A DNA stretch of 64,000 bases from Alphaproteobacteria bacterium (GCA_040223615.1 JAVKFY010000053.1:395-64394), one strand, 5' to 3'. Shown: positions 9,057 to 41,277, numbered from the stretch's first letter. Translations and numbers: made by a program. Notes: generated from the letters alone by a model not told the origin.

Positions 9057-10046
9057 ATGATCCTGCTCGTCGGTTCGCCCCGGTCCGGGACCACCTGGCT
9101 GGCGAAGATTTTTGATAGTCATCCGCGCGTGCTGTACCGGCATGAGCCGGATACGGTCGATCGTGGCCATGAGCTGCCGATCTACTGCGAGGGCGAGAAG
9201 ATCGAGCAGAACCTCGATACCGCCCGTGCCTATCTCGACCGCCTGGTTCGGGTGCGCAACACCAAGTCGACCGGCTCGCTGCCGATCTTTCCGAAGACCT
9301 ACCTGGCCGGTCCAAGCCTGGCCTTGCGCAAGGCCATGATCGTCGCCGCCAAGGCCGGCGAACGGCTGCCCCTGGTCGGCGATGGCTTCCGCCGCCTCGA
9401 CCTGCCCGATATGGCCGATCCCACCGCGCCCGACATCGAGATCGCGATCAAGTCGATCGGTGCGCTCGGCCGGGTGCGTCTGTTCCTGCGCGCCCGTCCC
9501 GACACCCGGGCGATCGTCATCGTGCGCCACCCGTGCGGCCACGTGTCGTCGGTGCTGCGCGGCATCGCCCGCAACATGTTCGACGACAACAAGCCGGCGA
9601 CCGAGGCACGCGGCATCTACGAGGACCTGGCGACCACCGAGCCGGCCAAGCGCCGCGGCCTGGACGCCGACGCCTTCATGGCGATGACGCCCGAGGCGCG
9701 GCTGACCTGGCGCTGGGCGATTCCGAACGAGCTGGCGATGGCGGCGGCCGACGACGCCGCCGGCCGGGTCCGCGTGGTGCGTTACGAGGATGTCTGCCGG
9801 GCGCCGGAAGCGCTGGCCCGCGAGCTGTTCGAGTTCGCAGGCCTGGATTGGCAGGACCAGACCGCCGGCTTCGTCGGCGCCTCGACCGCCGGCGGCGATG
9901 GCAACGAGAGCTACTATCAGCTGTTCCGCGACCCGCTGAAGTCGGCGATGAAATGGCAGCAGGAACTGTCCGACGAGCAGCAGGCGGCGATCCTGGCCGT
10001 CGCCGCCGAGACCGCGCCGGGGCGGCTGTTCACGGAAGCCGCTTGA
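9057..10046 (+). CDS. Sulfotransferase family protein (PAPS-dependent)
   Basis: 5'-PSB loop LLVGSPRSGTTWLAKIF and downstream RHPCGHVSSVLRG (3'-PB-like). Length about 330 aa. The upstream region is AT-rich. Confidence 0.75.
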   Translation: MILLVGSPRSGTTWLAKIFDSHPRVLYRHEPDTVDRGHELPIYCEGEKIEQNLDTARAYLDRLVRVRNTKSTGSLPIFPKTYLAGPSLALRKAMIVAAKAGERLPLVGDGFRRLDLPDMADPTAPDIEIAIKSIGALGRVRLFLRARPDTRAIVIVRHPCGHVSSVLRGIARNMFDDNKPATEARGIYEDLATTEPAKRRGLDADAFMAMTPEARLTWRWAIPNELAMAAADDAAGRVRVVRYEDVCRAPEALARELFEFAGLDWQDQTAGFVGASTAGGDGNESYYQLFRDPLKSAMKWQQELSDEQQAAILAVAAETAPGRLFTEAA

Positions 10047-11535
10047 GATAGACCTGGGCCGGCCCGACTGGCGGCCCGGATACCGGAAAGTCGACCGACA
10101 GCGGCGGCTGCGCGACGTAGCCGCGTGCCCGCGCCCAGTCGCGCAACGCCGTCTCCGCGACCGGCTCCATGCCGACCAGGATCGCCGGCGGATCGAAGCT
10201 CTCGTCGAGAGACATCGGTGCCAAGGCCGGCAGCGTCGCCGCGAGCTCGGCAGTGCCGGTGCGGAAGAAGAACGGGCCGCTGGCCAGTTCCGGCAGGATC
10301 GCGCCGCCGCCGTCCAGCACCAGAACCGGGCTCAGCGTAGCGACCGGCCCGGCGCCGGCCTGGGCCGCGATTGCCTGGGCGAGCGCGTGCAGCCGCGTCG
10401 GCACCCAGTCGGCCGGCGAGACCCACTGCTGGCTCAGCCGCGCCGTCTGCACCGCGACGGCGAGCCCGGCCAGGCCGGCGAAGACGTAGGCATGACGCCG
10501 CCGGTACCACACCGTCGGCAACGCCGCCGCGCCCAGGATCAGGAACGGCACCGCCGGTTGCAGGTAGTACTGCCACGGCGGCCGCGGCCCGAAATACGCC
10601 AGCGCGCCCAACGCCGCCGCGAGCAGCACGATCAGCCCGCCACGCCGGCGCAGCACCGCGTAGCTCGGCCGCACATGGCGGCGCAGCGCGATCAACCCGC
10701 CCAGCAGGAGCGCCAGCGCCGCCAGCAGCGCCGGGTCGGCGGACACCGCCCGGGCCAGGTAGGCCCATTGGAAACCATGGCTCAGCCATGCTTCGCGGCC
10801 GGTCGCCACGTACCAGTCGTACGGCGCCGTCAGGTGATAGGTGAAGCTGCCATAGACGAATGCGTCGGGCGCCAGCGCCGCCAGCACCGCCGTCGGCAGC
10901 AGCCCGGCCACCCCACCCAGCAGGTAGGCAGGCAGCAGACGCGGCACGATCCAGGCCAGCCCGATCATCACCGCCAGCCCGGCGAACCCGGCCGATAGCT
11001 TGGCCGACAGGGCCAGGGCCAACACCGCGCCGGCCAGCGCCACCAGACCATGGCCCCGCCGGTCCGATGCCTTCAGCGCCAGCCAGACGCCGAGCAGTGC
11101 CAGACAGATCGGCAGGATGTCGTTGCGCGCCGTCCCGAAGGCCGGCCACATCGTCGACGATGTGACGAACAACGCCGCCGCCACGCCGGCGACCAGTCGC
11201 CGCCCGGACAGCCGCCAGGCGACCGCGTGGACCAGCACCAGCGCGACGACGCCGAACGCCGCCGACGCCAGTCGCGCCAGCACGAACGGCGGCGCCTCGA
11301 CCGCCGCCAGCAGCGGCGCCAGCAGCAGCGGCTGCAATGGCGTCTGCAGGTACAGGAAGTCGCGATAGGGCAGCAGGTCGCGCGCCAGCACCGCCGCCGC
11401 GACATACTGCTCCTCGTCATGGTTGAACGGCTGGGTCAGCGCCTGTAGCGGCGGCACCAAGGCCAGCAACGTCAGCAGCAACGCCGGTGCCAGCCAATCG
11501 TTCGGCGCCCGCCCTGTCGTCGCTTGATCCCGCAT
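10030..11535 (-). CDS. Polytopic membrane protein, GT-C-fold glycosyltransferase-like (ArnT/PMT/DUF2029-like), alternatively Wzy-like
   Basis: 501 aa, at least 10 predicted TM segments. The first loop carries an NHDEEQY motif (DE motif of GT-C enzymes). Confidence 0.55.
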   Translation of the reverse strand: MRDQATTGRAPNDWLAPALLLTLLALVPPLQALTQPFNHDEEQYVAAAVLARDLLPYRDFLYLQTPLQPLLLAPLLAAVEAPPFVLARLASAAFGVVALVLVHAVAWRLSGRRLVAGVAAALFVTSSTMWPAFGTARNDILPICLALLGVWLALKASDRRGHGLVALAGAVLALALSAKLSAGFAGLAVMIGLAWIVPRLLPAYLLGGVAGLLPTAVLAALAPDAFVYGSFTYHLTAPYDWYVATGREAWLSHGFQWAYLARAVSADPALLAALALLLGGLIALRRHVRPSYAVLRRRGGLIVLLAAALGALAYFGPRPPWQYYLQPAVPFLILGAAALPTVWYRRRHAYVFAGLAGLAVAVQTARLSQQWVSPADWVPTRLHALAQAIAAQAGAGPVATLSPVLVLDGGGAILPELASGPFFFRTGTAELAATLPALAPMSLDESFDPPAILVGMEPVAETALRDWARARGYVAQPPLSVDFPVSGPPVGPAQVYLKRLP

Positions 11536-11540
11536 CGGTC

Positions 11541-12647
11541 TCAGCCCAGCAGCAGGCGCTCGTAGGTCTCGAACATCCGGTCCGGCGGGAAGCGCGTGCG
11601 CGCCGCCTCGCGGTTGGCGGCGCCGAGCGAGGCCCGCAAGGCCGCGTCGCCGGCCAGCACCAGCATCGCCTGCGCGAACGCGGCCTCGTCATCGCGCGGC
11701 ACGACGAAGCGCTGGTTCGCATCGGCCACCATCGAGCGCACGTCGCCGACGTCGACACTGGCCACCGGCTTGGCCGCCGCCATCGCCTCCAGCACCGACA
11801 GCGGCATCTGCTCGGTGTCGGAACTCAGCGCGAAAATATCGAACAGCGGCACCACGCGCGCCGGTTCGGCGATGTGTCCGGTGAAGATCACCGCGTCGCC
11901 GAGCCCCATGCCGGCGGCCTGTCGCTCAAGCTCGCCGCGCACCCGGCCATCGCCGACGATCGCCAGCCGCGACAACGGCAGGCTGGCATGCACGACCGCG
12001 AAGGCGCGCAGCAGCCGGCCGAGATTCTTCTCCGGCCGCAGCGCCGCGACCGTGCCGATCACCGGTCCCTCTGCGGCCGGCAACAGGCTGGCATCGCCGC
12101 CGCCGGTGAAGCGGTCGACGTCGATGCCGTTCGGCACGTAGTGGACTCGGTTCTGCGGCTGTCGCCAGATCTCGGTGGCGATGCGCTGCAAGGTGAGCGA
12201 CGGCACGATCAGTTGCCGCGTCCGGCGCAGCGCCAGGCGCCGGTACAGGACCCGACGCCGCAACTGCCGCTCCGCCTCTTCCGGCCCAAACCCGTCCTCG
12301 AAATGCACGTGCGGCGCGATCGGCGCGACGGCATTGGCCAGCGCCCAGTCGACCGCGCCCCAATTGTAGGTGACCAGCAAGTCCGGCCGCGCCTGGCGCA
12401 GCACGCGCCGAATCGTCGGCAGGTTGAGGGCGGACAGCTTCTTGTTGACCGGCGGCTCGATGAAGTCGGCCGCGAGTCCGGCCGGCAGCTTCTCGCGGGC
12501 CGCGAAATTGCCGCTGATCGACACCACCGAGTGCCGGGCGCGGTCGCCGATACGCTCGGCGATATGGGCGAAGCGGACTTGCGGGCCGCCGACCGCGAAG
12601 GTCGAGAAGACGTGGAACAGGTGGCGCTGTTCCGGCGCGTCGCTCAC
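11541..12647 (-). CDS. Glycosyltransferase family 4 (GT-B)
   Basis: C-terminal EX7E-like region (...LSVLEAMAAAKPVASVDVGDVRSMVA...). N-terminus HLFHVFSTFAVGGPQ. A GTG start at 12647 overlaps the TGA of the upstream gene; the ORF-track start at 12830 lies inside the upstream gene. Confidence 0.7.
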   Translation of the reverse strand: MSDAPEQRHLFHVFSTFAVGGPQVRFAHIAERIGDRARHSVVSISGNFAAREKLPAGLAADFIEPPVNKKLSALNLPTIRRVLRQARPDLLVTYNWGAVDWALANAVAPIAPHVHFEDGFGPEEAERQLRRRVLYRRLALRRTRQLIVPSLTLQRIATEIWRQPQNRVHYVPNGIDVDRFTGGGDASLLPAAEGPVIGTVAALRPEKNLGRLLRAFAVVHASLPLSRLAIVGDGRVRGELERQAAGMGLGDAVIFTGHIAEPARVVPLFDIFALSSDTEQMPLSVLEAMAAAKPVASVDVGDVRSMVADANQRFVVPRDDEAAFAQAMLVLAGDAALRASLGAANREAARTRFPPDRMFETYERLLLG

Positions 12648-14755
12648 TCGATCGGACCGTGCACGTCGATGGCACGGCGGACGAAGGTCGCGTGGTCGGA
12701 AACCGGCGACCAGCCCAGGTCGCGCTTGGCGTCGGCGCAGTCGAAGCGCGCCATCAGTCCGCGCGAGCGCAGGTCGGCGATGCTGGGATAGGGCGCGTCG
12801 CGTCGCCCGATCGCCTGCTTCACCAGCCACTTGAACACTTCCGTCGATTGCAGCCAGCCGACGCTGTGGCCATGGAAGCGCAGCGGACGGCGCAAGGCCT
12901 TGCCCAGCGCCTCGACATATGCGCGCGCCGAGAGCCGGACGTCGCCGACCAGATTGTAGGCCTTGCCGTTGGCTGCATCAGCGTTGTTCAGCGCGCCGGC
13001 CACGGCGGCGGCGACGTCCTCGACCAGCACGAAGGGCAGCGGATTGCGCCCCTGGTTCCAGCCCAGCGTGTGCCGCTCGCGGTTGAAGAACCCAAGGCCG
13101 CTGTGAAATGCCAGGCCACCCTCTCCGACCACCAGGCCGGGCCGCAGGATGCAAACCGGCAGACCTCGCTCGCGGTGCATCCGCAACAGCGCGTTGTCGG
13201 CCATGCCCTTGCCGCGCGAGTAGACCGCGCGCTTTTCCGGCTCCGGGTCGGTCGGCGTCTCGCCAGTGATCGTGGCCGAGGGGTCGCCGAGTTGCAGCGA
13301 CGCGATGGTGCCGGTGTGCACCAGCATCTCCACGCCCTTGTCCAGGCAGACCTCGCCGACCAGACAGGCGGAATCGATCATCGACTGCTGGATTTCGTCG
13401 GCCGAGCCGCCCTGTGCGCCCTGCGCCAGGTTGACCACCAGCCGGGCCTGGCCGATCGCGCGCTCGATGTCCTCGCGCCGGTGCACGTCGCCGGTGACGA
13501 TCGCCACGTCGGGGTCGGCGAAGACCGCGGCCGACGGGCTCGCCGATCGCGACATCACGCCGACCTTGTGGCCCTGCGCGCGCAACGCGGCGACGACATG
13601 CTGGCCGATGAAGCCGGTGCCGCCGAGCACGGCGACGTCCCAGCTCTCGGTGCGCGTCACGGCCGGCGCCGCGGCCGGCGGCTCGATGCCGGCGGCGTCG
13701 GCAATCTGCTCGCACAGGCCGATCAGGTCGCCGCCAAAGCGGCCGTCGCTTTGCAGCGCGCCGCCCTGACGGCTGGCATGGAACGCACCGATCGAGCCCT
13801 TCATGCTGACGAAGAACGGGTCGGACCGTCCGCGCAGCTTCAGCAGCGACAGCACGTCGCCGACCATGTTGCCGGTGGCCTGGCCCAGGCCGGACAGCGC
13901 CGGCATGGTGCCGCCCTGCCAGAAATCGAAGAACTCCGGCCAGCGCGACGCCCGCTCCACGGTGACCCGGTTCGCCAGCACGTCGGCATGGACGATCCCG
14001 TCGCGGCAGATCGCCTGCACCCGCCACGCCGGATAGTCCTGGCCGAAGGCAAACAGCGACTGTGCCGTCACCGTGCCGTGGCGGCTGGCGACCATGAACC
14101 GCTCGTAGAACGGCTGGCCCGGTCCCAGCTCGCGCGGCGGCGAAGCGGAGGCCGACAGTTCGTCGGCCGACCCCACCAGCGCCTGGATCAGCGACAGCGG
14201 ATGCACCGCCTGCTCCAGCAGGATGTTCTGCGGCGCCTGGAACATCCAGTGCCCGAACTGGCCGGCCGAAAGCTGGCGCAGCGGCATGTTGTAGACCAGG
14301 CCGAGATGGCGCAGCTCGCCGAGCTCGCCGCTGTCCAGGATCTTGCGCAGGCGCACGAAGGCCGGGTTGAAGACGAAATTCTGGTTCACGCCGAGCCGCG
14401 CCTTGCCGGCCTCGGCCGCGGCCAGCAGCGCCTCGCACTCGGCCGCGCTGACGCCCATCGGCTTTTCCAGCAGCACGTCGATGCCGGCTTCGAGCAGCGG
14501 TGCCGCCACCGCGCGGTGCGCCGCCGGCGGCACCAGCACGTGCGCGACATCGCACGCCCGCGCCGCGATCAGCGCGTCGACGTCACCGAATGTCTGCGGG
14601 ATCTTCCAGCGCCCGGCCAGCGCCTCGGCGCGTGCCGGATCGCGCTCGACCACGGCCGCCAGCGACACCGACGGCAGCCCGGCCAGCGCCTGCGCATGAA
14701 CATCGGAGATGAAACCGGCACCGACGAGCGCGACGCGAGCCGTCGCCGTGGACAT
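12644..14755 (-). CDS. Bifunctional Gfo/Idh/MocA-family oxidoreductase fused to an NAD-dependent epimerase/dehydratase (SDR) domain
   Basis: N-terminal half VALVGAGFISDVHAQAL...VLLEKPMG... matches Gfo/Idh/MocA. C-terminal half VAVLGGTGFIGQHVVAALRAQGHKV... matches an SDR Rossmann fold. It is a single uninterrupted ORF. Start placed at MSTATARVALVGAGF, just after the cysNC stop. Confidence 0.75.
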   Translation of the reverse strand: MSTATARVALVGAGFISDVHAQALAGLPSVSLAAVVERDPARAEALAGRWKIPQTFGDVDALIAARACDVAHVLVPPAAHRAVAAPLLEAGIDVLLEKPMGVSAAECEALLAAAEAGKARLGVNQNFVFNPAFVRLRKILDSGELGELRHLGLVYNMPLRQLSAGQFGHWMFQAPQNILLEQAVHPLSLIQALVGSADELSASASPPRELGPGQPFYERFMVASRHGTVTAQSLFAFGQDYPAWRVQAICRDGIVHADVLANRVTVERASRWPEFFDFWQGGTMPALSGLGQATGNMVGDVLSLLKLRGRSDPFFVSMKGSIGAFHASRQGGALQSDGRFGGDLIGLCEQIADAAGIEPPAAAPAVTRTESWDVAVLGGTGFIGQHVVAALRAQGHKVGVMSRSASPSAAVFADPDVAIVTGDVHRREDIERAIGQARLVVNLAQGAQGGSADEIQQSMIDSACLVGEVCLDKGVEMLVHTGTIASLQLGDPSATITGETPTDPEPEKRAVYSRGKGMADNALLRMHRERGLPVCILRPGLVVGEGGLAFHSGLGFFNRERHTLGWNQGRNPLPFVLVEDVAAAVAGALNNADAANGKAYNLVGDVRLSARAYVEALGKALRRPLRFHGHSVGWLQSTEVFKWLVKQAIGRRDAPYPSIADLRSRGLMARFDCADAKRDLGWSPVSDHATFVRRAIDVHGPIE

Positions 14756-14777
14756 CGCTGTGGCTCCCGATTGCGGC

Positions 14778-16673
14778 TCAGGCCGCGCCGCTCTTGGCCG
14801 ACTCATAGCGGAAGTTGCTCTTCACGTAATCGATGATGTGTTGCACGCAGTCGTCCACCGCATCGCGGCTGGTGTCGACCACCAGCTCGGCCTTCTCCGG
14901 CGGCTCGTAGGGCGCCGAGATGCCGGTGAACTCGGCGATCTCGCCGGCCCGGGCCTTCTTGTACAGGCCCTTCGGATCACGGTTCTCGCAGACTTCCAGG
15001 TCGGCCTTGACGTAGATCTCGTGGAACTTGTCGCCGGCCGCGGTTCGCGCCCGGTCGCGGTCCGACCGGTACGGCGAGATGAAGGCGGTGACGACGATCA
15101 TGCCGGACGCGCACATCAGTGCCGCGACCTCGCCGATGCGCCGGATGTTCTCCGCGCGATCTTCCGGACTGAAGCCCAGGTCGGCGCACAGGCCGGAGCG
15201 CACGTTGTCGCCGTCCAGCACGTAGACCTGGTAGCCCATGGCGTAGAGCCGCCGCTCGACCTCGACCGCCAGCGTCGACTTGCCGGCACCGGATAGCCCG
15301 GTAAACCACATCACGCCGCCCATGTGGCCGTTGCGCTGCGCCCGGGCGACGTCGGTGACGTCGTGCTCGACCGCGTAGATGTTGGTCGCGCGCACGGTGA
15401 TCAGTTGACGCTGGTCGGCATAGCCTTCCATCGAGATGATGCCGCCGCCGGCGATGTCGTAGCCATCGACCAGCACGAAACGGCCGAGCCGCTGGTCGTC
15501 GGCGAAGTCGTCCAGCGCGACGATGCGATCCGCCCGCATGGTGACCTCGGCGACCGCGTTGCGCGGCACCTCGGTACCGCTGGCATTGAGCGACAGGTCG
15601 TCGGTGTCGACCACCTGGTCGATCGACTGCACCCGCACCGGCACCACCGCCGTCGCCAGCTTCATCTTGAAGCGGTCGCCGACCTTCAGCGGTCGCTTGC
15701 CGAGCCAGAACACACGGCCGCGAAACACGTCGGTCTCCACTGGCGGCTCGACCTCCAGCGAACAGATCTCGCCGCGCTCGACGAAGAGTTGCTCGTCCAA
15801 CGTGATACCGACGCTCTCGCCGGCCGATGCCTCGGTCGGCTGCTCGCCGACGCTCCAGGCCTCGATCGAGGCGACCCGCGCGGTCTTGTTCGACGGCGAG
15901 AACAGCACCCGGTCGCCGACCTTGAGCCGCCCGCTCTCGATCCGGCCGGCGATGATCCGGCGCTGGTCGAACTTGTAGACCGCCTGAACCGGCATGCGCA
16001 GCGGCTGCTCGGTGGGCTGGGTCACGACCTGGAACTCGTCCAGCGCCTCAAGCACCGTCGGGCCGCGATACCAGTCCATGGCCGACGAACGGTCGGCGAC
16101 GTTGGCGCCCTCGCGGGCCGAGATCGGAATGAAGAACACCGGATGCACGCCGAGCCCGGCGAGGTATGCGGTGTACTCGCGCTCGATCTCCGCGAAACGC
16201 TCCTGGCTGTAGCCGACCAGGTCCATCTTGTTGACCACCACCGCGACCTGCCGCACGCCCAGCAGGTGCAGCAGGTAGCCGTGCCGGCGCGACTGTTCGC
16301 GCACGCCTTCCTCGGCGTCGATCAGCAGCAGCGCGGCGTCCGACGCGGCCGCGCCGGTGACCATGTTCTTGAGGAATTCCTTGTGCCCCGGCGCATCGAT
16401 GATCACGTATTCGCGCTTCTCGGTGCGGAACCAGATCTGCGACGTGTCGATGGTGATGCCCTGGTCGCGCTCGGCCTGCAGCGCGTCCATCAGGAAAGCG
16501 TACTCGAACGGCATGCCGCGCCGCTCGCACATCGCCTTGATCGACTCGTACTTGCCGTCGGGCAGCGAGCCGGTGTCGTGGAACAGCCGTCCGACCAGGG
16601 TCGACTTGCCGTGGTCGACGTGGCCGACGATGACGATCTTCATGTTCTCGCGGGTCTGGGTCATGGCCGCCAT
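14778..16673 (-). CDS. cysNC: Bifunctional sulfate adenylyltransferase subunit 1 / adenylylsulfate (APS) kinase (NodQ-like CysN-CysC fusion)
   Basis: GTPase G1 motif [15 protein letters not shown] with DAPGH and NKMD. The C-terminal APS-kinase P-loop is [13 protein letters not shown]. Confidence 0.9.
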
Positions 16674-16677
16674 TCCC

Positions 16678-17472
<795 letters not shown>

Positions 17473-17706
17473 CGATAAGCTACCAATCGTCTGTCCGGCG
17501 GACGAACGTCCGCGCGTATGTCCTTGGCCGCGCTGTGTAGGAGTCGCGATGCCAAGCGTCAACCCGCAGTCGAGTGACAACTTGACAACATCAGCCTACC
17601 GAAACGCTAACAGCCCTCCGGTCTTGGTTAAGCAAGCGACGGGCCAATTCATGTTGCAGTGCAGCACAACGCCACATGTATTGAATCGTTCCTGAGTTTC
17701 AACAGC

Positions 17707-18921
17707 TTATTTCCCGCGTGCCGCCAGCAGCTCAAGGAACAACGTTTCAACGCGGCGCGCGTTGCCGTCCCACGTGTAGTCGTGCACCGCAATGGCACGG
17801 GCCGCGGCGGCGCCGAGCCGCGTGCGCAGTTCGGAATCGGCACACAGCCGGTCGATGGCACCGCGGAAGGCGCCGGGCGCAGCGGGGTCGAACAGCAGCG
17901 CGCTGTCGTCGTGTTTCAGGATCTCACGGATATTCGGCTGGTCCGGCGCCACGATCGCCTTGCCCAGCGTCATGTATTCGAAGGCTTTCAGCGGCGAGGC
18001 GTAGTCGGTCACCTTCGGCTGCAATGCGACGTCGAAGGCGGCAACGTAGTGCGCCACCTGGTCGCGCTGCACCACGCCCAGCACGGTGACCTGGTCCGCC
18101 ACCCCGCGCTTGGCCGCGTGCGCCTCCAGTTCGGCCCGCGCCAGACCGTCGCCGACGATCAGGAAGTGCAGGTTCTCCCGGTTCGGGCTCTCCGCGATGG
18201 CATCGACCACGGCGTTGAGCCCGTGCCAGGCGCGCATGAAGCCGGTGAACCCGAGCACCACCTTGCCTTCAAGGCCAAGCTCGGCGCGCGCCGCGTCGCC
18301 GTTCAGGCTGGGCGGGAAGCGTCCCAGGTTGATGCCGTTGGGGATCACCCGGATATGCCCGTCGGGCACGCCACCGGCGCGGCAGAAGTCCGCCAGCACG
18401 TCGGTCACCGGCAGCACGTAGTCGGCCTGGCGCCAGGCCACGTGCTCCAGCCAGCGCGCGAAGCCGCGCATCGCCAGGTCGCCGTATTTCGCGCGCTCAT
18501 CGGCCAGCGGCGCGTTGACCTCCAGCAGGAATGGCAGGCGCGCGCGTTTCGCCAGCCAGCCGCCGGACAGCAGGAACAGGTTATTGCGCTCGTACAGCAC
18601 GTCGGGCCTGTGCTCGCGCCACGCCCGCGCCAGCCGGAAATAGGCCGGCACCGAGTAGCCAAGCTCAAGCAGCTCGTAGACCGGTGCCGGCAGCAGGCGC
18701 TTCAGCCAGCCGATTAAGCCGGCACCCTCGGCCGTCGCGTCGTCGCCAAAGGTGGCTTCGCGCATGCCGCCGGGCTCACACATGACGATCTCGTGCCCGC
18801 GCCGCTTCAGCGCCGCCGTCAGCTCCTCGATGTGGACATTCTGGCCGTCCTTGGATCGCGTGCGGTGGTGGTAGAGGATGCGCAACTTGCGGGGCGCGGG
18901 CTCAGGCTCGCTCGCGCTCAT
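17707..18921 (-). CDS. Glycosyltransferase family 4
   Basis: GT-B fold pattern (ILYHHRTRSKDGQNVHIEEL...). The C-terminal half is glycos_transf_1-like. Confidence 0.8.
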   Translation of the reverse strand: MSASEPEPAPRKLRILYHHRTRSKDGQNVHIEELTAALKRRGHEIVMCEPGGMREATFGDDATAEGAGLIGWLKRLLPAPVYELLELGYSVPAYFRLARAWREHRPDVLYERNNLFLLSGGWLAKRARLPFLLEVNAPLADERAKYGDLAMRGFARWLEHVAWRQADYVLPVTDVLADFCRAGGVPDGHIRVIPNGINLGRFPPSLNGDAARAELGLEGKVVLGFTGFMRAWHGLNAVVDAIAESPNRENLHFLIVGDGLARAELEAHAAKRGVADQVTVLGVVQRDQVAHYVAAFDVALQPKVTDYASPLKAFEYMTLGKAIVAPDQPNIREILKHDDSALLFDPAAPGAFRGAIDRLCADSELRTRLGAAAARAIAVHDYTWDGNARRVETLFLELLAARGK

Positions 18922-20105
18922 GGCGTCCGCCAGTCGGCCACGACACGCTCGAACAGGTCGCGCTGGCCGGCGCTGGTGTCGTCCCAGGAGAAGCCCTCGG
19001 CATAGGCCCGCGTCGCGGCCGGGTCCGGCATGTCGGCGAACAGGGCCTGCGCCGCCGCCACCACCCCGTCGGCGTCCAGCGTCGGCATCAGCCGGCCGGC
19101 CTCAGGCGCGGCGACCACCTCCGGCGTGCCCCAGACGTCGGACGCCACCACCGGCGTGCCGCAGGCCATCGCCTCCAGCAGAACGTTGGCCCAGCCCTCA
19201 CGGCTCGACGCCAGCACCAGCGCGTCGGCGGCCGCGTAATAGGCCGCGAGTTCGCTGTGCGGCACCCGGCCGAGCAGCGTCACCCGGTCGGCCACGCCCA
19301 GTCGTTCGGCCAGCGCCTCCAACCGGCCGCGCTCCGGGCCCTCGCCGGCGATCAGCAGCCGGCAGTCCGGCAGCTGTTGCAGCGCCTCGACGATCAGGTG
19401 GTGGCCCTTGCGCTCGATCAGCAGGCCGACCGACAGCAGCAGCCGGCCGCCGCCGGCATGGCGGGCGCGGACCTCCGATCCATCGACCGGCCGGAAGCCT
19501 TCCAGGTCGACGCCGTTGCGCAGCACCGTGACCCGCTCCGGTGCCACGCCGATGTCGACCAGCTCGTCCTTCAGCGCCTGGCACACGGTTATCATTGCCG
19601 CCGCCTGCCCGGTGACCCAGCGGATCATCCGGCGCGGCAGCGCGTAGTCGAGCATCAGGTTCAGGTCGCTGCCGCGCGCCGTTACCACGAAAGGCAGCCC
19701 GAAGCGGCGCGCCAGCAGCGCCGCCGCGACCCCGTCAGGATAGAAGAAATGCGCATCGATCACCTGCGCGTCATAGCCCGACGATAGTTGCTTTTCGATT
19801 GCCGGAATGCTCGCCCGATACAGAAACCACGGCGTCACATTCTGGCCAATCTTCGGCAGCACAATGTAGCGCGGATGGTCGATGTCGAAGCCGTGGCGGC
19901 TTTCGCGGCGCGGCGCGGCGGCGAACTTGGCATACTCGCCGAAGGCAGGCGAGGCGAAGGGAAACCACGGTACCGGCGCCACCACGTGGCTCTCCGCGGC
20001 GCCGGTCGCGACAAGATGGCGAAGCCGATTCTCGACGAACACCCCATGGTTAGGTTGTGCGAGATTTGGGTAAAGCGTAGTGTATGTGATCAATCGCACT
20101 GTCAT
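18918..20105 (-). CDS. Glycosyltransferase family 4 (exosortase-locus-type sugar transferase)
   Basis: MTVRLITYTTLYPNLAQPNHGVFVENRLRHL... is a GT-B fold. Stop/start overlaps the preceding GT4 gene. It is divergent from an AT-rich promoter region at 20106-20200. Confidence 0.75.
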   Translation of the reverse strand: MTVRLITYTTLYPNLAQPNHGVFVENRLRHLVATGAAESHVVAPVPWFPFASPAFGEYAKFAAAPRRESRHGFDIDHPRYIVLPKIGQNVTPWFLYRASIPAIEKQLSSGYDAQVIDAHFFYPDGVAAALLARRFGLPFVVTARGSDLNLMLDYALPRRMIRWVTGQAAAMITVCQALKDELVDIGVAPERVTVLRNGVDLEGFRPVDGSEVRARHAGGGRLLLSVGLLIERKGHHLIVEALQQLPDCRLLIAGEGPERGRLEALAERLGVADRVTLLGRVPHSELAAYYAAADALVLASSREGWANVLLEAMACGTPVVASDVWGTPEVVAAPEAGRLMPTLDADGVVAAAQALFADMPDPAATRAYAEGFSWDDTSAGQRDLFERVVADWRTP

Positions 20106-20224
20106 CGGCGATCATCATTACTATTTATACATGGTTTGGACTTAGGTCTTGGGGCCGGCGCGGTCCAAACTAGGCGCCTGTAGCTCGCAAGGCAATCCGA
20201 TTGGAGCGATCTCTCGCAGCCGAC

Positions 20225-29451: not shown

Positions 29452-31386
29452 CTACCCCGCGGCACGCACCTGCTGGTCGGCCAGGGCCGACTTGCCGGTA
29501 TCGTGCACCTGGCGCAGGAAGCCGTCGAACATCAGCAGGTTCCACAGGCCGGTGGCGTGGTCCCAGCGGCCGGACTGGTGCTCGTCGACCAGCCGCGCCA
29601 CGGCGGCCGGTTCGAAGATGCCGCTGTCGGCCAGTGCCGGACTGGCGGCGACGGCGCGGATGCGGTCGGCCAGCGGACCGCGGAACCAGTCAGCCAGCGG
29701 GATCGAGAAACCCATCTTCGGCCGGTACAGGATGTCGGCCTCGATGTGCGGCTCCATCGCCTTCTTCAGCAGGTACTTGCCCTCGCGGCCGCGCAGCTTC
29801 ATGTCGGCCGGCAGGGTCGCCGCCCACTCGACGAACTCGTGGTCCAGCAGCGGCGCCCGGGTCTCCAGCGAGGCCGCCATCGAGGCGCGGTCGACCTTGA
29901 CCATCATCCGCCCCGGCAGCCAAGTCTTCAGGTCGGCATACTGCGCCTGCAGCAGCGGCACGTCGGTGTCCGCCTCCTCCATCGCCCCGCGCAGCACCTC
30001 GCAGGCGTGATAGCCGGCCAGCTCGCGCTTGAAGCCGGACGAATAGATCTGGTCGCGATGCGCGTCGGTCATCGCCGAGACCGAGACGAAGAAACCACCG
30101 ACCGCGTCCAGCGCCAGTTCCTGCAACGTGGTCTTGGCGCGCAGCGGCCGCGGCGCCCAGTCGAGTTTCGGGTAGAGCCGCCCCAGCGCGCCGAAGACTG
30201 GCCCGCGCAAGGCCGCCGGCAGCAGGTGACGTACCCGCTCTTCGTTCACGTGCCAGGGATAGCGTCGGTAGCCGGCCAGCACCTCGTCGCCGCCGTCGCC
30301 GCTGAGCGCCACGGTGACGTTCTCGCGTGCCACTGCGCTGACCCGGTAGGTCGGCATCGCCGAGCTGTCGCCGAACGGCTCGTCGTAGATCGACGCCAGC
30401 CGGTCGATCAGATCGAACTCCTCGGCCGCGACGATTCGGGTGAAGTGGTTGGTGTGATAGCGCGCGGCGTGGCGCGCGGCATATTCGCTTTCGTCGAACT
30501 TCGGGTTGTCGAAGCCGATCGAGAAGGTGTTCACCGGGTCGGTCGACTGCTGCGCCATCAGTGCCACCACGGCCGAGGAGTCGACGCCGCCGGACAGGAA
30601 CGCGCCGATCGGCACGTCGGAGACGCGGCGGATGTCGACCGCGACGCGCAACCGCTCCGCCAGCTCGGCCGCCGCTTCGGCCTCGCCGCGCGCCCGCGGG
30701 TCGAAGCGCACCGACCAGTAGGTTACCGGTGCCGGCACCGGCCGCCCGCTGGTCACCGTCAGGGTCGTCGCCGGCGGCAGCTTGGCGACGTCGCGATAGA
30801 TCGAGCGCGGGTCCGGCACGTAGCCGTAGGCCATGTAGTCCTCGACCGCTCGCGGGTCGATGCGGCGCGGCAGATCAGGCAGCACCAGCAGCGCCTTCAG
30901 CTCCGAGGCGAAGGCGAGCCGGCCATCGGGCAACTCGGTGTAGTAGAGCGGCTTCTTGCCGAGCCGGTCGCGGGCCAGGAACAGGCATTGCTTGTTGGCG
31001 TCGTGCAGCGCGATGGCGAACATGCCGCGCAGCCGCTCGACGAAGTCCGCTCCCCATTCCTCCCAGGCATGCACCATCACCTCGGTGTCGGAGACGGTGC
31101 GGAAGGTGTGGCCCAGCGCCTGCAGCTCGGCCATCAGCTCGCGGTAATTGTAGATCTCGCCGTTCTGGATGACCGCGACGCTGCGGTCTTCGTTATAGAT
31201 CGGCTGGTCGCCGGTGGTCAGGTCGATGATCGCCAGCCGGCGATGACCCAGGCACACGCCCGGCGCGGTGTGAAAGCCGTCGCCGTCCGGGCCGCGATGC
31301 GCGATCGCGTCCGTCATCACGGCGACGGCGCGCGGATCGATCGGCCGCAAGCCTTTCGTGTCGAACTGTCCGGCCAGCCCGCACAT
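29452..31386 (-). CDS. asnB: Asparagine synthase (glutamine-hydrolysing), exosortase-A-system-associated amidotransferase type
   Basis: MCGLAGQF... (N-terminal nucleophile Cys2) and ...SGGVDSSAVVALMAQ (PP-loop). Length 644 aa. It is directly upstream of XrtA on the same strand. Confidence 0.85.
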   Translation of the reverse strand: MCGLAGQFDTKGLRPIDPRAVAVMTDAIAHRGPDGDGFHTAPGVCLGHRRLAIIDLTTGDQPIYNEDRSVAVIQNGEIYNYRELMAELQALGHTFRTVSDTEVMVHAWEEWGADFVERLRGMFAIALHDANKQCLFLARDRLGKKPLYYTELPDGRLAFASELKALLVLPDLPRRIDPRAVEDYMAYGYVPDPRSIYRDVAKLPPATTLTVTSGRPVPAPVTYWSVRFDPRARGEAEAAAELAERLRVAVDIRRVSDVPIGAFLSGGVDSSAVVALMAQQSTDPVNTFSIGFDNPKFDESEYAARHAARYHTNHFTRIVAAEEFDLIDRLASIYDEPFGDSSAMPTYRVSAVARENVTVALSGDGGDEVLAGYRRYPWHVNEERVRHLLPAALRGPVFGALGRLYPKLDWAPRPLRAKTTLQELALDAVGGFFVSVSAMTDAHRDQIYSSGFKRELAGYHACEVLRGAMEEADTDVPLLQAQYADLKTWLPGRMMVKVDRASMAASLETRAPLLDHEFVEWAATLPADMKLRGREGKYLLKKAMEPHIEADILYRPKMGFSIPLADWFRGPLADRIRAVAASPALADSGIFEPAAVARLVDEHQSGRWDHATGLWNLLMFDGFLRQVHDTGKSALADQQVRAAG

Positions 31387-31389
31387 GGC

Positions 31390-32946
31390 CTAGGGCGCCT
31401 TCGCCCGTGCCGCCGCCAGCGTCGGCGCCAGCGGACCGAGCTTGTCGACAAAGGCGCGTAGCGTCGCCAGCGCCGCTTCCGGATCGTTCCCGGCCTCAGT
31501 GGCGACCGCGATCTGCGCCGCCGCCACCTGCCCGGTGAGCAGGCGGGCGCTGACCTGCGCCAGCTTGGCGCGCAGCCGGCTGGCGGTGAAATGTCCGTCG
31601 ACCCAGTAGAACGGCAGCACGACCAGGCTGCCACCAGCGTATTGAAGCCGTTCGCCGCGCACCTGCAACACCGTGCCGTCCGGCGCCAGCGTGCCGTTCA
31701 GGCTGGCGACCCGTTTCCAGGTCTCGTCGTCGTACAGCCGGTTGTTGTGCGAGATCAGCTCGGCCCCCTCACGCTCGTAGGCATAGTAGGCGATCTCGAG
31801 TTGAACCAGCTTGCCATCGGCCTCGTAGGACTGTGACAACATCGCGTCGGGATGGCGGTGCACGATGTGCCAGCCGCCCAGGTCGCGCGTCGTGGGCCGC
31901 CATGGTGCCGCGACGGGCGGGGCCTGCAACGCGACCGCCGTGGTGGCAGGTTGGCCGACGATATAGGTGGCATAAGCCGGCCCGGACACGACCAGCAGCG
32001 CCGCGATCGCGCCCGTCAGCACCATCGCGAACGGCGTGCCGGCGATCGGCGCCGGACCCGCCGGCGCGGCGCGTTCGGTTTTCTCCGCCTCGATGTCCTC
32101 GCGGAAGCCGAAGCCGATCCACGTCAGCAGGGCCAGAACGAAGGCAAAGAAGAACCAGCCGTAGACCAGGTGGTCGGCGGCAATCGCCATCTGGTTATCG
32201 GTGACGTGCGAGAGGTAGATGATACCGAGCGCGCGGAAACCGTTGGCGATCAGCGGCACGACGAAGGACAGCGCCACGAAGACCAGCCGGCGTTGCCATG
32301 ACCGGTAGACCATGTAGGCGAACAGCAGGCCGTAGGCGATCGACGCGATCAGGAAGCGCAGGCCCGCGCAGGCTTCCGCGACCCTGAAGTTACCGTTCGG
32401 AATGGTGATGAAGATGCCGTCGTGCAGCGTCGGAATGCCGAGCAGGCGCAGGGCGCCGACCGAGAAGTCGGCGGTGAAATCCTGTAGCACCGGCACCAGC
32501 CACTCGCCGGACGGCACCAACAGGAACAGGTACAGGAACGGGAACCAGGCGACCCGGTAGACCGACCAGCCGAGCACCGCCAGCAGCACCACCTGAGCCA
32601 TGGCGACGATCGCGAGCTGCTCCAGTTCCAACACGCCGGCCACGTCGCCGATCAGGCGCACCACCAGCAGCGGCAGCAGCAGGACCAGCACCCACGGCAT
32701 CGGCTTCGGCGCCACGCGCGCCAACGCCGCGCGGTTGTCCCACAGCAGGTAGAGCGAGACCGGCAGGATCAGATAGCAGTGGGTGAAGGTCTCCGAGCGG
32801 TTCCACACCCGGATCGCACCGGACACCGCGTCGAAGAACAGCCAGCCCATCAACGCGAACACCGCCAGCACCGTCGCCGTCGCCAGCATCCAGGCGCGAC
32901 GGTCGACCGCCGGCGTTGTGTCCTTCTCGAACGTCATTGCGACCAC
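31390..32946 (-). CDS. xrtA: Exosortase A (XrtA/EpsH) fused to a C-terminal EpsI-family domain
   Basis: The polytopic N-terminal ~290 aa carry the exosortase motifs ...FRVAEACAGLRFL... (Cys) and ...IANGFRALGIIYL... (N-G-x-R). The C-terminal ~220 aa are soluble and EpsI-like. Confidence 0.75.
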   Translation of the reverse strand: MVAMTFEKDTTPAVDRRAWMLATATVLAVFALMGWLFFDAVSGAIRVWNRSETFTHCYLILPVSLYLLWDNRAALARVAPKPMPWVLVLLLPLLVVRLIGDVAGVLELEQLAIVAMAQVVLLAVLGWSVYRVAWFPFLYLFLLVPSGEWLVPVLQDFTADFSVGALRLLGIPTLHDGIFITIPNGNFRVAEACAGLRFLIASIAYGLLFAYMVYRSWQRRLVFVALSFVVPLIANGFRALGIIYLSHVTDNQMAIAADHLVYGWFFFAFVLALLTWIGFGFREDIEAEKTERAAPAGPAPIAGTPFAMVLTGAIAALLVVSGPAYATYIVGQPATTAVALQAPPVAAPWRPTTRDLGGWHIVHRHPDAMLSQSYEADGKLVQLEIAYYAYEREGAELISHNNRLYDDETWKRVASLNGTLAPDGTVLQVRGERLQYAGGSLVVLPFYWVDGHFTASRLRAKLAQVSARLLTGQVAAAQIAVATEAGNDPEAALATLRAFVDKLGPLAPTLAAARAKAP

Positions 32947-33096: not shown

Positions 33097-34152
33097 CTAC
33101 CCAAGGCTTCGCACCAGGTGCGGCCCGACCGCGTTCGCCACCGCCACCGGCAGGCGTTGCCAGGCGGCGATGAACAGGCGGTATTTCGGGTTGTTCGGGT
33201 TGTTGTCCGGTACTTCCCGACCTGGCCGCAGGTTGAACTCATAGCGCAACGGACGCGGCGCGAACCCCCAGTTGACCTTGAAGTCGAACGAGCCGGTGCC
33301 GCGCTTGGACCGGCCGAAGTCGAACCGGGAAAGCCCGCGCTCGGCGGCACGGCCGATCAGCCGCCAGTACATGTAGCTCTGTGCCCCGGTCTCGCGTGCG
33401 GCCGCCATGCCGCCGGCATAGTAGGGCGCGATGGTGTCGCGATGGACGAAACTCATCACCGTCGCCAGTGGCGCGCCGGCGCCGTCCAGCACCGTCAGGA
33501 GCTCGCAGTCGTCGCCGAAGGTCGCCTTCAGGTCCCGGAAATAGCCGCGCGGAAAGGCCGGCGTGCCATGGTCGCGCAGGCTGGTCGAATAGACGTGGAA
33601 GTGACGGTCGAGGTCGTCGTCCAGTATCGCGCCGAGCTTCAGGTCTTTCACTGCCCGGCGGATCACCTGGCGCTGCGCTTCCGGCACGGCCAGAAGGTTC
33701 GCCGCCGGCGAAGCCGATATGTCCTTGGCGAAGGTGACATACAGGTCGTCCTTCACCGCCCAGTCCGGCCGCTGCCGCTCGATCTCGCGGAACTCCACGA
33801 AGTCGGCGCCGAGCCGGTCGCGCAATGCCAGCGCGTGGTCGTCGAGCGCGCGCCGCGCCGGCTCGTCATCGGCCACAGGCCCACCGTAGACGCAAAATGG
33901 CGTTGAGATCAGCCCATTGGCGTTGAACAGCCGGCTCTTCACGTGCGCCAGCGGCAGCACGCCGCAGACCCGCCCGTCGCGCTCGGCATAGGCGTAGTGG
34001 GTCGCCAGCCCGAAGCTGCGCTCGATCAGCCCGGCCCAACCGGCGCGGTGGCAGAAGCTGGCCTGCGGATGCTGGACGACGTAGTCGTCCCAGGCGGCCC
34101 GCGCATGCGCGTCAAGCGCCTTGACCACGACCGGCGCCATCGGTCCGGACAT
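33097..34152 (-). CDS. FemAB-family / CelD-like acyltransferase, PEP-CTERM-system-associated type
   Basis: 351 aa. ...SFCHRAGWAGLIE... and the C-terminal ...MYWRLIGRAAERGLSRFDFGRS... match the Acetyltransf_6/FemAB-like fold found in XrtA loci. Confidence 0.65.
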   Translation of the reverse strand: MSGPMAPVVVKALDAHARAAWDDYVVQHPQASFCHRAGWAGLIERSFGLATHYAYAERDGRVCGVLPLAHVKSRLFNANGLISTPFCVYGGPVADDEPARRALDDHALALRDRLGADFVEFREIERQRPDWAVKDDLYVTFAKDISASPAANLLAVPEAQRQVIRRAVKDLKLGAILDDDLDRHFHVYSTSLRDHGTPAFPRGYFRDLKATFGDDCELLTVLDGAGAPLATVMSFVHRDTIAPYYAGGMAAARETGAQSYMYWRLIGRAAERGLSRFDFGRSKRGTGSFDFKVNWGFAPRPLRYEFNLRPGREVPDNNPNNPKYRLFIAAWQRLPVAVANAVGPHLVRSLG

Positions 34153-34165
34153 CAGCGGCGCGCCG

Positions 34166-34996
34166 TCACTTGCCGTCGATGGCGGCGGCGAAGGCCTGGT
34201 CCATGCGGCCCCAGCGGAAGTCGCGCAGCAGGCGCGTCAGGCGCGGCTGCATCCGCGCCAGGCCGACATAATGGCGAAAGCGGCTCTTGGCGCTGATGCC
34301 GCGCTGCCGCGGCTGGTCGGGGTCGACTTCCCAGGGGTGCATGTAGAACACGCCCGGCTGGCCGTCGACCCGGTTCACCCGGGACAGCAGCGCGCGCGAC
34401 AGCGCATAGGGGAACAAACGGAAATAGCCGCCGCCGCTGCACTGTACGTTGCGTCCGCGCAGGCGCACCGTGGTCATCGGGATCTCGACCAGGCTGTTGC
34501 CGGGCCGCGGCCGATAGGCGAAGCGCGGCGCGTCGGGAATGCCGTAGAAGTCGTGCTTCACCGGATAGATCGACGAGCTGTAGGCGTGGCCTTCCTCGGC
34601 CAGCACGTCGAACGCCCACAGGTTGTGACTGTTGATCGAGAAGGTCGCCGCGCGGTAGCCGCGAACCGGCGCGCCGCCGGTGTCCTCCAGCAGCTTGCGG
34701 GCCTGCCGGATGTCGGCGCGGAACGCGTCCGGCGACTGCGTGTCGACGCGAACGTGCGCCATGCCATGGCTGGCCAGCTCGTGGCCCTCGTCGACGATCC
34801 GCCGGACCAGAGCGGGATAGCGCTCCGCGACCCAGCCCAGGGTGAAGAAGGTCGCCTTCACGCCGGCCTCGTCGAACATGCCGAGCAGCAGGTCGACGTT
34901 GCGCTCGACCCGGCACGGCAGGCTGTCCCAATCGGCCCGGTCGATATTCTGCGAGAAGGCGTGGACCTGAAAATAGTCCTCCACATCGACCGACAT
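34166..34996 (-). CDS. Polysaccharide deacetylase (NodB/CE4), PEP-CTERM-locus subfamily
   Basis: MSVDVEDYFQVHAF... is the CE4 motif-1 (TxDDx-like). HGMAHV follows. The alternative ATG at 35128 would overlap the upstream gene by 35 nt. Confidence 0.8.
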   Translation of the reverse strand: MSVDVEDYFQVHAFSQNIDRADWDSLPCRVERNVDLLLGMFDEAGVKATFFTLGWVAERYPALVRRIVDEGHELASHGMAHVRVDTQSPDAFRADIRQARKLLEDTGGAPVRGYRAATFSINSHNLWAFDVLAEEGHAYSSSIYPVKHDFYGIPDAPRFAYRPRPGNSLVEIPMTTVRLRGRNVQCSGGGYFRLFPYALSRALLSRVNRVDGQPGVFYMHPWEVDPDQPRQRGISAKSRFRHYVGLARMQPRLTRLLRDFRWGRMDQAFAAAIDGK

Positions 34997-35093
34997 CGCG
35001 TTCAGCAGCCGGCCGGCGCCGTCGACACGCGCCGGCGCGCCCGGCGCAGGAGCCGCCCTCGACTCCGCCGGCGCGGTGCGCAGCGTGGCGAGA

Positions 35094-36230: not shown

Positions 36231-36239
36231 TATGTTCTA

Positions 36240-37757: not shown

Positions 37758-37800
37758 CGCCTATCGGTGGTTCCAAGCAGCAGTCTAGGACCAGCCGCTA

Positions 37801-40508: not shown

Positions 40509-40656
40509 CGGACGATCCCGGGTCAATGCCCTTTAGCTAGGTCGCGGCTCAGCCGCGACGGCCCTCGACACGGTCCCTGGCGGAACCGCTCGCGACCCAT
40601 TACGGCACAACTTTCACCGACGCCGCGGTCGCGACGGGAGTTCTGCAAGAAGCGTG

Positions 40657-41277
40657 CTAGAACCAGCTTTGCGGGATGATCAACACGTCGCCGGGCAGCA
40701 TTTCCACGTTTGCCGCCACATCGCCGTCCTTCACCAGGTCGTCGAGACGCACCCGATAGCTCTTCTCGCTGCCATCAACCTGCCGCACGATCACCGCGTC
40801 GTTGCCGGCGGCGAATTCGGTAAGCCCGCCGACCGCGATCATCACGTCGAGAATCGACATGTTTTCCCGATATGGGATGCCCTGCGGCCGTGCCGCCTCG
40901 CCGACCACGCGAATTTGCTGGTCGAACGGACCCTGGAAGCCCGTCACCAGAACGCTGACGATCGGATCCTGGATGAACTTGGCCAGTTCCACTTCCAGGT
41001 CGCGCGCCAATTCGGTCGGCGTCTTGCCGGCGACCGGGACGTCGTCGATCAGCGGCACCGTCAGGCGGCCGTCGGGCCGCACCGGCAACGTCACCGACAG
41101 TTCCGGGTTGCGCCAGACGAAAATGTTCAGATTGTCGCCGGGGCCAATTCGATAGGCCGGGGTCGGAAAGTCGCCGGCGTCGGCCGGTGCCAGATCACGC
41201 TGCGCGCAGCCGGCCAAGACCAGCATGCCGATCGCCGCAATGCCCACCAGCAGTCCGTGGAGTCGCTTCGCCATCAC
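40657..41277 (-). CDS. Polysaccharide export outer-membrane lipoprotein (Wza-like, exosortase-locus type)
   Basis: Lipobox LVLAGC. YRIGPGDNLNIFVW is the Poly_export PES motif. Length 206 aa. Confidence 0.8.
   Translation of the reverse strand: MMAKRLHGLLVGIAAIGMLVLAGCAQRDLAPADAGDFPTPAYRIGPGDNLNIFVWRNPELSVTLPVRPDGRLTVPLIDDVPVAGKTPTELARDLEVELAKFIQDPIVSVLVTGFQGPFDQQIRVVGEAARPQGIPYRENMSILDVMIAVGGLTEFAAGNDAVIVRQVDGSEKSYRVRLDDLVKDGDVAANVEMLPGDVLIIPQSWF

Follow-up and report, generated by a model that had tools for sequence, protein, structure and literature searches.

The window analyzed here is a 64,000-nucleotide (nt) stretch of DNA from an Alphaproteobacteria bacterium (GCA_040223615.1, JAVKFY010000053.1:395–64394), with a G+C content of about 68%. 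The block considered, at positions 9057–20105, holds a sulfotransferase gene and a run of glycosyltransferase (GT) genes that includes cysD and a cysN–cysC fusion (cysNC), the genes for synthesis of 3′-phosphoadenosine 5′-phosphosulfate (PAPS); the same contig carries a locus of the exosortase A (XrtA)/PEP-CTERM exopolysaccharide (EPS) type. Genes were called by third-position GC content (GC3) and identified with Pfam and NCBIfam hidden Markov models (HMMs), and every gene named in a preliminary description, made from the sequence alone, was recovered at its coordinates.

The gene at 9057..10046 (plus strand) encodes a PAPS-dependent sulfotransferase of 329 aa, predicted to be cytoplasmic and assigned by HMMs, motifs, and fold to an uncurated subfamily of PF13469. 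Both sulfotransferase families are matched above their cutoffs, Sulfotransfer_3 (PF13469) with E = 1.2e-17 and 65.3 bits (cutoff 27) and Sulfotransfer_1 (PF00685) with 29.3 bits (cutoff 22). The two motifs noted previously are present: the 5′-phosphosulfate loop stands right at the N-terminus (MILLVGSPRSGTTW), with PRSGTTW at residues 8–14, and RHPCGHVSS, the 3′-phosphate-binding R...S motif, occupies residues 157–165. In an alignment of 38 sequences R157 and S165 are invariant, and R9, S10, G11, and T12 are at least 90% conserved. The protein has no signal peptide. A search of the PDB by sequence yielded only marginal matches (E of 0.1 or higher), and a structure model was used in its place; the model (pLDDT 93) shows the sulfotransferase alpha/beta fold, in agreement with the HMMs. 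The fold settles the enzyme class, not the acceptor. With the NoeE model (NF052394) the protein scores 18.1 bits against a cutoff of 500, the alignment being limited to the 5′-phosphosulfate loop.

The minus-strand run from 20105 to 10030 comprises seven genes, in the order GT4c, GT4b, cysD, cysNC, Gfo–SDR, GT4a, and a GT-C-like gene. GT4c (18918..20105), GT4b (17707..18921), and GT4a (11541..12647) are glycosyltransferases of the GT4 family by Pfam and NCBIfam; the best NCBIfam models are stp2 (TIGR03088) for GT4a and stp3 (TIGR04063) for GT4b, both below cutoff, and TuaC for GT4c (141.4 bits, cutoff 550). Gfo–SDR (12644..14755) encodes a 703-aa fusion of a Gfo/Idh/MocA oxidoreductase with a short-chain dehydrogenase/reductase (SDR)-type epimerase/dehydratase, assigned by the same databases to nucleotide-sugar modification. 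The last gene of the operon (10030..11535) encodes a multi-pass membrane protein of 501 aa, which we tentatively call GT-C-like and PMT/PMT_2-like: its PMT match (E = 3e-4, 20.8 bits) is under the cutoff of 22.7, and its orthologue in a relative described below (locus L004) has weak GT87/PMT_2 matches. The sulfotransferase gene converges on the GT-C-like gene; their 3′ ends overlap by 17 nt (10030–10046), with no terminator-like site between them. The end of the sulfotransferase gene lies 4.7 kb from the end of cysNC, the distance estimated earlier.

Genes in the run are closely packed. GT4c and GT4b overlap by 4 nt. With corrected starts, the five-gene stretch that begins with cysD and ends with the GT-C-like gene has, in order, an overlap and spacings of 22, −4, and 5 nt. 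The sole sizeable gap, 234 nt upstream of cysD (17473..17706), might contain an internal promoter; a consensus promoter scan of 8300–21800 found no promoter-like sites, this gap included. Terminator-like sites in the same interval occur only at the frequency expected from shuffled sequence. An Rfam scan of the whole window gave no matches, hence no sulfur-related riboswitch offers a clue to the regulation of cysD.

The position of cysD and cysNC on one strand amid GT4 genes and the Gfo/Idh/MocA–SDR gene is borne out by HMMs and intact motifs. cysD (16678..17472, minus strand) encodes the small subunit of ATP sulfurylase in a short form of 264 aa, as judged from HMMs, homologue lengths, and the N-terminus. 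It matches PF01507 (E = 1.4e-36) and NF003587 (350.7 bits, cutoff 195), and scores below the stricter cutoffs of TIGR02039 (252.2, cutoff 396.6) and NF009214 (263.9, cutoff 413). A far-upstream TTG was rejected as its start; the 264-aa homologues and the N-terminal sequence place the start near 17472. cysNC (14778..16673, minus strand; start probably 16673 or 16664) encodes the GTPase subunit of ATP sulfurylase fused to adenosine 5′-phosphosulfate (APS) kinase. A far-upstream ATG proved to be the wrong start, and the protein read from there had no exact database match. Both parts are recognized by Pfam (GTP_EFTU, E = 1.2e-45; APS_kinase, E = 1.2e-66) and by NCBIfam (TIGR02034, 372.5 bits, cutoff 336.1; TIGR00455, 257.3 bits, cutoff 138.7); the bifunctional model NF004035 gives 634.9 bits, under its cutoff of 715. 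The G1, G3, and G4 motifs of CysN, the P-loop of the APS kinase, and its LDGDN motif (LDGDNVR) are all intact.

The closest relatives of these two proteins are common in Alphaproteobacteria. CysD is 76–82% identical to the 264-aa CysD of many members of this class, including Parvibaculum, and CysNC is 68–72% identical to copies in core-genome contexts (two such genomes). In two genomes cysD–cysNC stands alone among core genes (gyrA, tgt, greA, rpmE, and the like), adjoining the genes for an epimerase and GlmS or near a UDP-glucose dehydrogenase gene. The fusion had been called NodQ-like, which holds for its architecture and not for its lineage; a specialized paralogue of the NodPQ type was considered and rejected, since the nearest relatives, at 76–82% identity, lie in core-genome contexts.

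Genomic context and domain fusions of the sulfotransferase family

Homologues of the sulfotransferase were collected by a scan of species-representative genomes, which gave 80 loci at 38–50% identity; these were queried with the window's own proteins. Contexts were counted within a radius of 10 kb around the homologue, at the 49 loci whose flanks extend 8 kb or more in either direction. XrtA-core genes occur at 18 of the 49 loci, one of which also has cysD–cysNC; 5 have only the XrtA-type amidotransferase; 7 have cysD–cysNC directly downstream on the same strand without an XrtA core (cysD–cysNC is found at 8 of the 49 overall); and at 9 the neighbors are other genes for GTs or EPS. The association of the sulfotransferase with XrtA and cys genes is far beyond chance, as it recurs in many unrelated genomes. 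In a neighbor-joining tree without support values, genomic context tracks the clades.

A recurrent arrangement, on one strand, is deacetylase–FemAB–XrtA–GT–amidotransferase–sulfotransferase–GT4c–GT4b, seen in Rhodanobacteraceae, Lysobacteraceae, Sedimenticola, Lentisalinibacter, Thiohalobacter, and others. Gaps in these loci are as short as 20–60 nt in several cases, and their GT4c and GT4b proteins are 47–57% identical to those of the window. In the gammaproteobacterial loci the XrtA amidotransferase gene is directly upstream of the sulfotransferase homologue, and GT4b orthologues (47–52% identity) come after sulfotransferase–GT4c in the XrtA operons. At 17 loci a GT4c orthologue (50–63% identity) begins about 20–400 nt past the sulfotransferase gene. 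Orthologues of GT4a (49–52% identity) stand beside sulfotransferase homologues at loci L006, L054, L085, and L092, and full-length Gfo–SDR orthologues adjoin them at L006 (56%) and L092 (47%).

An independent alphaproteobacterial locus, L085, combines XrtA, orthologues of GT4a and GT4b, and, at its edge, sulfotransferase–cysD–cysNC; here and at L054, also alphaproteobacterial, genes of the block are contiguous with genes of the XrtA system. Thus, when we asked whether cysDNC and the sulfotransferase travel with the GT block in XrtA-containing genomes, XrtA was found at 18 of the 49 loci and cysD–cysNC at 8, with all three together at one (L085). In an 88%-identical relative (L004), sulfotransferase, GT-C, GT4a, and cysNC genes are kept together, and the upstream flank is different. 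There a PhyH-family dioxygenase gene lies directly upstream of the sulfotransferase gene (L004 6747–7580); the window has no PhyH gene. A 44%-identical PhyH (L002 14279–15103; L003 9192–10016) is encoded three genes downstream of the 50%-identical sulfotransferase that adjoins homogentisate-pathway genes.

A sulfotransferase–cysD–cysNC cassette occurs in Acetobacteraceae and other alphaproteobacterial metagenome-assembled genomes (L086 10001–13893, L020, L024, L025, L031, L033, L037, and L046). At L086, the sole such locus whose full annotation was examined, the cassette stands alone among unrelated genes. The CysD and CysNC proteins of these cassettes form a divergent lineage, only 36–40% identical to those of the window, versus 68–82% for relatives in core contexts; the window's pair is thus of the ordinary lineage, moved into a glycan operon.

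The family is large and mostly unnamed: searched against 1.84 billion representatives, a profile built from 38 members picks up 724 representative clusters at E ≤ 1e-30 (clusters counted at 50% identity). NCBIfam has no model for the window sulfotransferase or for seven homologues taken from XrtA, cys, and GT contexts.

Domain fusions were also seen. Two independent proteins, of 878 and 890 aa, join a Wzx-type flippase (Polysacc_synt_3, E of about 1e-61 and 1e-65) to the sulfotransferase, and such fusions were found on several contigs from different samples. A third protein, of 558 aa, joins the sulfotransferase to an APS kinase (P0268; L095 1938–3614) on a single metagenomic contig of 4.3 kb. 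The Wzx-fusion locus L092 carries orthologues of GT4c (59%), GT4b (48%), and GT4a (49%) together with the Gfo–SDR orthologue mentioned above. At loci L093/L094, Gfo and SDR are encoded by separate genes that adjoin and overlap; also present are a GT-C protein of the PMT_2 type, three FemAB-like genes, and a deacetylase, and several methyltransferases and acyltransferases at these loci suggest a heavily decorated glycan. These loci have a further sulfotransferase gene, distinct from the fused one, 1.5 kb away from the Wzx–sulfotransferase fusion (L093/L094 7494–8450). From the gene content of L092 and L093/L094, the sulfotransferase, GT4a, GT4b, GT4c, and Gfo–SDR, sometimes with a GT-C-like protein, form a recurring gene set, into which cysD–cysNC has been inserted in the lineage of the window.

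Exosortase-A core and other genes of the window

The XrtA core spans 28742–43584, and nine curated models of the XrtA system are matched above cutoff within 29.4–41.3 kb. The XrtA/PEP-CTERM amidotransferase, an asparagine-synthase homologue (29452..31386, minus strand), scores 968.4 bits with TIGR03108 (cutoff 816.9). Exosortase A is fused to an EpsI domain in a protein of 518 aa (31390..32946, minus strand; TIGR03109, 314.6 bits, cutoff 208; TIGR02914, 110.8 bits, cutoff 42.8); the same fusion scores 228.8 bits with the exosortase W model, under the cutoff of 425. Further along the minus strand (33097..41277) lie the genes for a FemAB-family protein, a polysaccharide deacetylase, an ATPase, an outer-membrane beta-barrel protein, a tyrosine autokinase, a chain-length determinant, and a polysaccharide export protein of the outer membrane (OPX), with TIGR03019, TIGR03006, TIGR03015, TIGR03016, TIGR03018, TIGR03007, and TIGR03027 above cutoff. 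Two FemAB-like (Acetyltransf_6) genes stand at the far edge of the locus, at 41377–42492 (minus strand) and 42487–43584 (plus strand). They are followed by a candidate GT2-type glycosyltransferase gene (about 43620–44447, plus strand), which was missed by the GC3 filter and is assigned from its translation only (VILSFNSAGYL...DSD). At the opposite edge, directly downstream of the amidotransferase gene, is a DUF6445 protein (28742–29416, minus strand) that matches no NCBIfam model.

Between the GT block and the core, 22172–28593 holds five genes. Their products are a methyltransferase resembling MetE, a dioxygenase of the TauD family, a hydrolase with the MBL fold, an amidohydrolase, and a GTPase of the CobW/G3E type, the last assigned from reading the translation only. 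As a set they have a flavor of sulfur or metal starvation.

A gene divergent from GT4c (20201–21628, plus strand) encodes a protein of 475 aa with N-terminal membrane segments and a long coiled coil; its matches to ZorA/MotA-like NCBIfam models are weak (41.9 bits, cutoff 250), and it has no Pfam family. A single PEP-CTERM-like tail, in an antisense open reading frame (ORF) at 21166–21666, was judged spurious. Relaxed Pfam scans brought no added clarity for the GT-C-like protein, the 475-aa protein, or small ORFs upstream of the sulfotransferase gene. Elsewhere in the window, two paralogues of the PEP_mutase/isocitrate-lyase family (3188–5892) flank a divergent LysR regulator gene, a layout kept at L004, and a membrane acyltransferase of the HGSNAT_cat family, similar to heparan-alpha-glucosaminide N-acetyltransferase, is encoded at 53539–54366 (plus strand; E = 6.5e-66), distant from the EPS genes.

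Proposed function and alternative explanations

We consider it probable that the block at 9057–20105 is a conserved module for a sulfated surface glycan, most likely serving the neighboring XrtA exopolysaccharide system. This agrees with the sulfated EPS or glycoconjugate proposed in the preliminary description, which the synteny in XrtA operons and the Wzx fusions support at the genomic level; of the checks suggested with it, those by sulfotransferase HMMs and by synteny came out in its favor. From the gene identities, motifs, fold, spacing, synteny, and fusions described above, we infer sulfation itself, its acceptor, the order of the steps, and the link to the XrtA exporter as follows. In the cytoplasm, CysD and CysN–CysC would make APS from sulfate and ATP, and PAPS from APS; their genes are probably co-transcribed with those for the Gfo/Idh/MocA–SDR protein, a GT4 transferase, and the GT-C-like protein, two more GT4 genes being located just upstream. 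The Gfo/Idh/MocA–SDR protein would tailor a nucleotide sugar, and the glycosyltransferases would work at the inner membrane face, assembling an oligosaccharide repeat unit attached to a lipid carrier. The sulfotransferase, lacking a signal peptide, would then move sulfate from PAPS to a sugar of the lipid-linked unit before flipping by Wzx. The likely acceptor is thus a sugar repeat unit on its lipid carrier, which would receive sulfate in the cytoplasm, as suggested by the Wzx–sulfotransferase fusions, one locus of which also holds GT4a/b/c and Gfo–SDR orthologues. Completion and export of the polymer would follow, probably via the polysaccharide co-polymerase (PCP), tyrosine-kinase, and OPX proteins of the XrtA locus.

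Several observations weigh against this assignment. The block had been described as embedded in an exosortase-A EPS locus; the locus is real, as its nine models demonstrate, and the block is detached from it by 8.6 kb and the five unrelated genes. On the stp2/stp3 models of the XrtA system all three GT4 proteins score below cutoff (GT4a, 165.5 against 409; GT4b, 132.8 against 442; GT4c, 121.4 against 442). No Wzx, Wzy, or priming transferase (Polysacc_synt, Wzy, Bac_transf) was matched in the 64-kb window by Pfam or NCBIfam, and a regular-expression scan of all its ORFs found no PEP-CTERM proteins; generally, PEP-CTERM substrate genes are often located elsewhere in the genome than the XrtA locus. 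The block might make a separate sulfated glycan, such as an O-antigen, a capsule, or a glycolipid, that has no functional tie to XrtA and merely shares its contig. The distance and the GT4 scores favor such a glycan, as do homologues in polysaccharide loci without XrtA in the 20 kb examined (e.g., L092–L094) and the GT-C/ArnT-like membrane protein, a type met more often in the glycosylation of lipids or proteins. Still, orthologues of GT4c, GT4b, and the sulfotransferase are co-operonic with XrtA, amidotransferase, FemAB, and deacetylase genes in about 18 genomes, counted at species level, that span several orders, and at L054 and L085 the block genes directly adjoin the XrtA system; we regard a separate glycan as rather unlikely.

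Other adverse points concern the sulfotransferase and the cys genes themselves. The sulfotransferase gene is on the strand opposite to the GT/cys operon; none of the window's proteins is encoded near the homologue at 10 of the 49 loci; and one 50%-identical homologue adjoins genes of homogentisate catabolism (HPPD, HgmA, FAH). The cysD–cysNC pair, being of an ordinary alphaproteobacterial lineage, may be the housekeeping copy, and may be the only one in the genome, in which case it could serve both assimilation and sulfation, by analogy with RaxPQ of Xanthomonas. Taken together, these points would fit a coincidence in which a GT operon happens to contain the housekeeping cysD–cysNC, and the substrate of the convergently transcribed sulfotransferase is a small molecule other than a glycan; the identity of 68–82% to copies standing alone in core-genome neighborhoods, the opposite strand, and the homologues beside homogentisate-pathway or PhyH dioxygenase genes, or without GT genes, all speak for it. 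We find this improbable: cysD–cysNC interrupts a GT4b/Gfo–SDR/GT4a set that is kept with the sulfotransferase elsewhere and ends 22 nt from the next sugar gene, the arrangement is retained in the 88%-identical relative, XrtA, EPS, GT, or cys genes are near the homologue at 39 of the 49 loci, and members of the family occur as fusions with Wzx flippases and with an APS kinase.

The nearest solved structures, which are protein-tyrosine sulfotransferases (TPSTs) and not carbohydrate sulfotransferases, also count against a glycan acceptor. A further possibility is that tyrosines of PEP-CTERM proteins or of another exported peptide are sulfated as by TPST or RaxST, with PAPS supplied by CysD/CysNC in the manner of RaxPQ. 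The invariant E30, 21 residues past the P-loop Arg, corresponds in alignment to the second Glu in the 'GEET' segment of TPST, a residue which we take to be the TPST catalytic base; Glu catalytic bases are also used by heparan-sulfate sulfotransferases. The link to XrtA, a protein-sorting system, points the same way, as does the RaxST/RaxPQ precedent (PMC6637879). Against this, the identity to TPST is only about 20% and the TM score about 0.5, values typical of PF13469 as a whole. PEP-CTERM proteins are exported, whereas the sulfotransferase has no signal peptide, and neither a precursor peptide, nor a peptidase-containing ABC exporter, nor a PEP-CTERM gene was found in the window. The fusion of the family to a Wzx oligosaccharide flippase and its constant GT4 neighbors further reduce the weight of protein sulfation, which we consider highly improbable.

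A broader proposal can be made, which is more tentative and to which we would lend somewhat less than even credence: that XrtA/PEP-CTERM systems of a wide range of soil, sediment, and sludge Proteobacteria may build sulfated exopolymers by means of a dedicated sulfotransferase family acting on the lipid-linked unit together with Wzx, and hence may be among the unidentified producers of sulfated 'glycosaminoglycan-like' polymers in granular sludge and biofilms. A paper on Pontiella states that the organisms making the sulfated polymers of granular sludge are not known. XrtA/PEP-CTERM is tied to floc and biofilm formation, and the chemistry of the polymers concerned is largely unknown; bacterial sulfated polysaccharides are poorly documented beyond cyanobacteria and a few marine isolates. 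Sulfate esters alter the charge, hydration, metal binding, and degradability of a biofilm polymer. The sulfotransferase family would provide a testable marker for producers of sulfated EPS and a candidate class of enzymes with which bacteria could be made to produce sulfated polysaccharides. Strains in culture also carry it: Lentisalinibacter salinarum X77 (L057, with the gene embedded among XrtA genes), Halieaceae bacterium WSDMB12 (L050), and Roseomonas sp. CAU 1739 (L062).

Comparison with known sulfation and exopolysaccharide systems

The presence of PAPS genes and sulfotransferases in polysaccharide clusters has already been published; the link to XrtA and this sulfotransferase family appear to be undescribed. 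No paper connecting XrtA/PEP-CTERM with sulfation was found among open-access papers and bioRxiv preprints, in line with the earlier statement that such loci are not characterized as making sulfated polymers, and neither Haft et al. 2006 (PMC1569441) nor the epsSMASH preprint (bioRxiv 10.64898/2025.12.21.693542) mentions sulfation or a sulfotransferase. Canonical XrtA/PEP-CTERM EPS loci, as described in the former and, for the zooglan type, in the latter, share with the window the nine curated proteins and GT4 genes; in the window, unlike these loci, the GT block is split from the core by five genes.

PAPS genes and sulfotransferases in one cluster with GTs have been published as the hallmark of sulfated-polysaccharide production for the chemically verified sulfated capsule of Vibrio sp. 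KMM 8419, whose cysD, cysN, and cysC lie with sulfotransferases and GTs in one cluster (PMC11641403). The window has the same combination of PAPS-synthesis genes and a sulfotransferase clustered with GTs, but the Vibrio capsule is of the ABC-transporter (Kps) type and not linked to XrtA, and its cys genes proved to be second copies. The synechan cluster xss of Synechocystis sp. PCC 6803, a genetically dissected cluster of the Wzx/Wzy type with eight GTs and two PAPS-type sulfotransferases, is similar in combining these enzymes and in exporting a sulfated EPS through PCP/OPX proteins (PMC8205485). It differs in being cyanobacterial, in having no exosortase and no reported PAPS-synthesis genes, and in carrying Wzx and Wzy of its own, neither of which is present in the window. 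The same 2021 paper stated that sulfated EPS is exclusive to cyanobacteria.

The rhizobial NodP/NodQ system with NodH or NoeE resembles the window in that a CysD homologue and a CysN–CysC fusion feed PAPS to a carbohydrate sulfotransferase. In rhizobia this PAPS is supplied for Nod-factor sulfation. The acceptor there is a lipo-chitooligosaccharide signal, and the window sulfotransferase falls short of the NoeE model.

In Xanthomonas, RaxST is a TPST-like enzyme that sulfates a tyrosine in the RaxX peptide, for which there is a dedicated ABC exporter, and RaxPQ serve both assimilation and sulfation. The likeness to the window is that a sulfotransferase uses a cysD/cysNC pair that also serves general sulfur metabolism. 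Genes of the RaxX-peptide and ABC-exporter type were not found in the window, and the fusions and neighbors of the family point to a glycan. For the block at 9057–20105, RaxP/RaxQ may nevertheless be the model of a PAPS supply that is shared and not dedicated.

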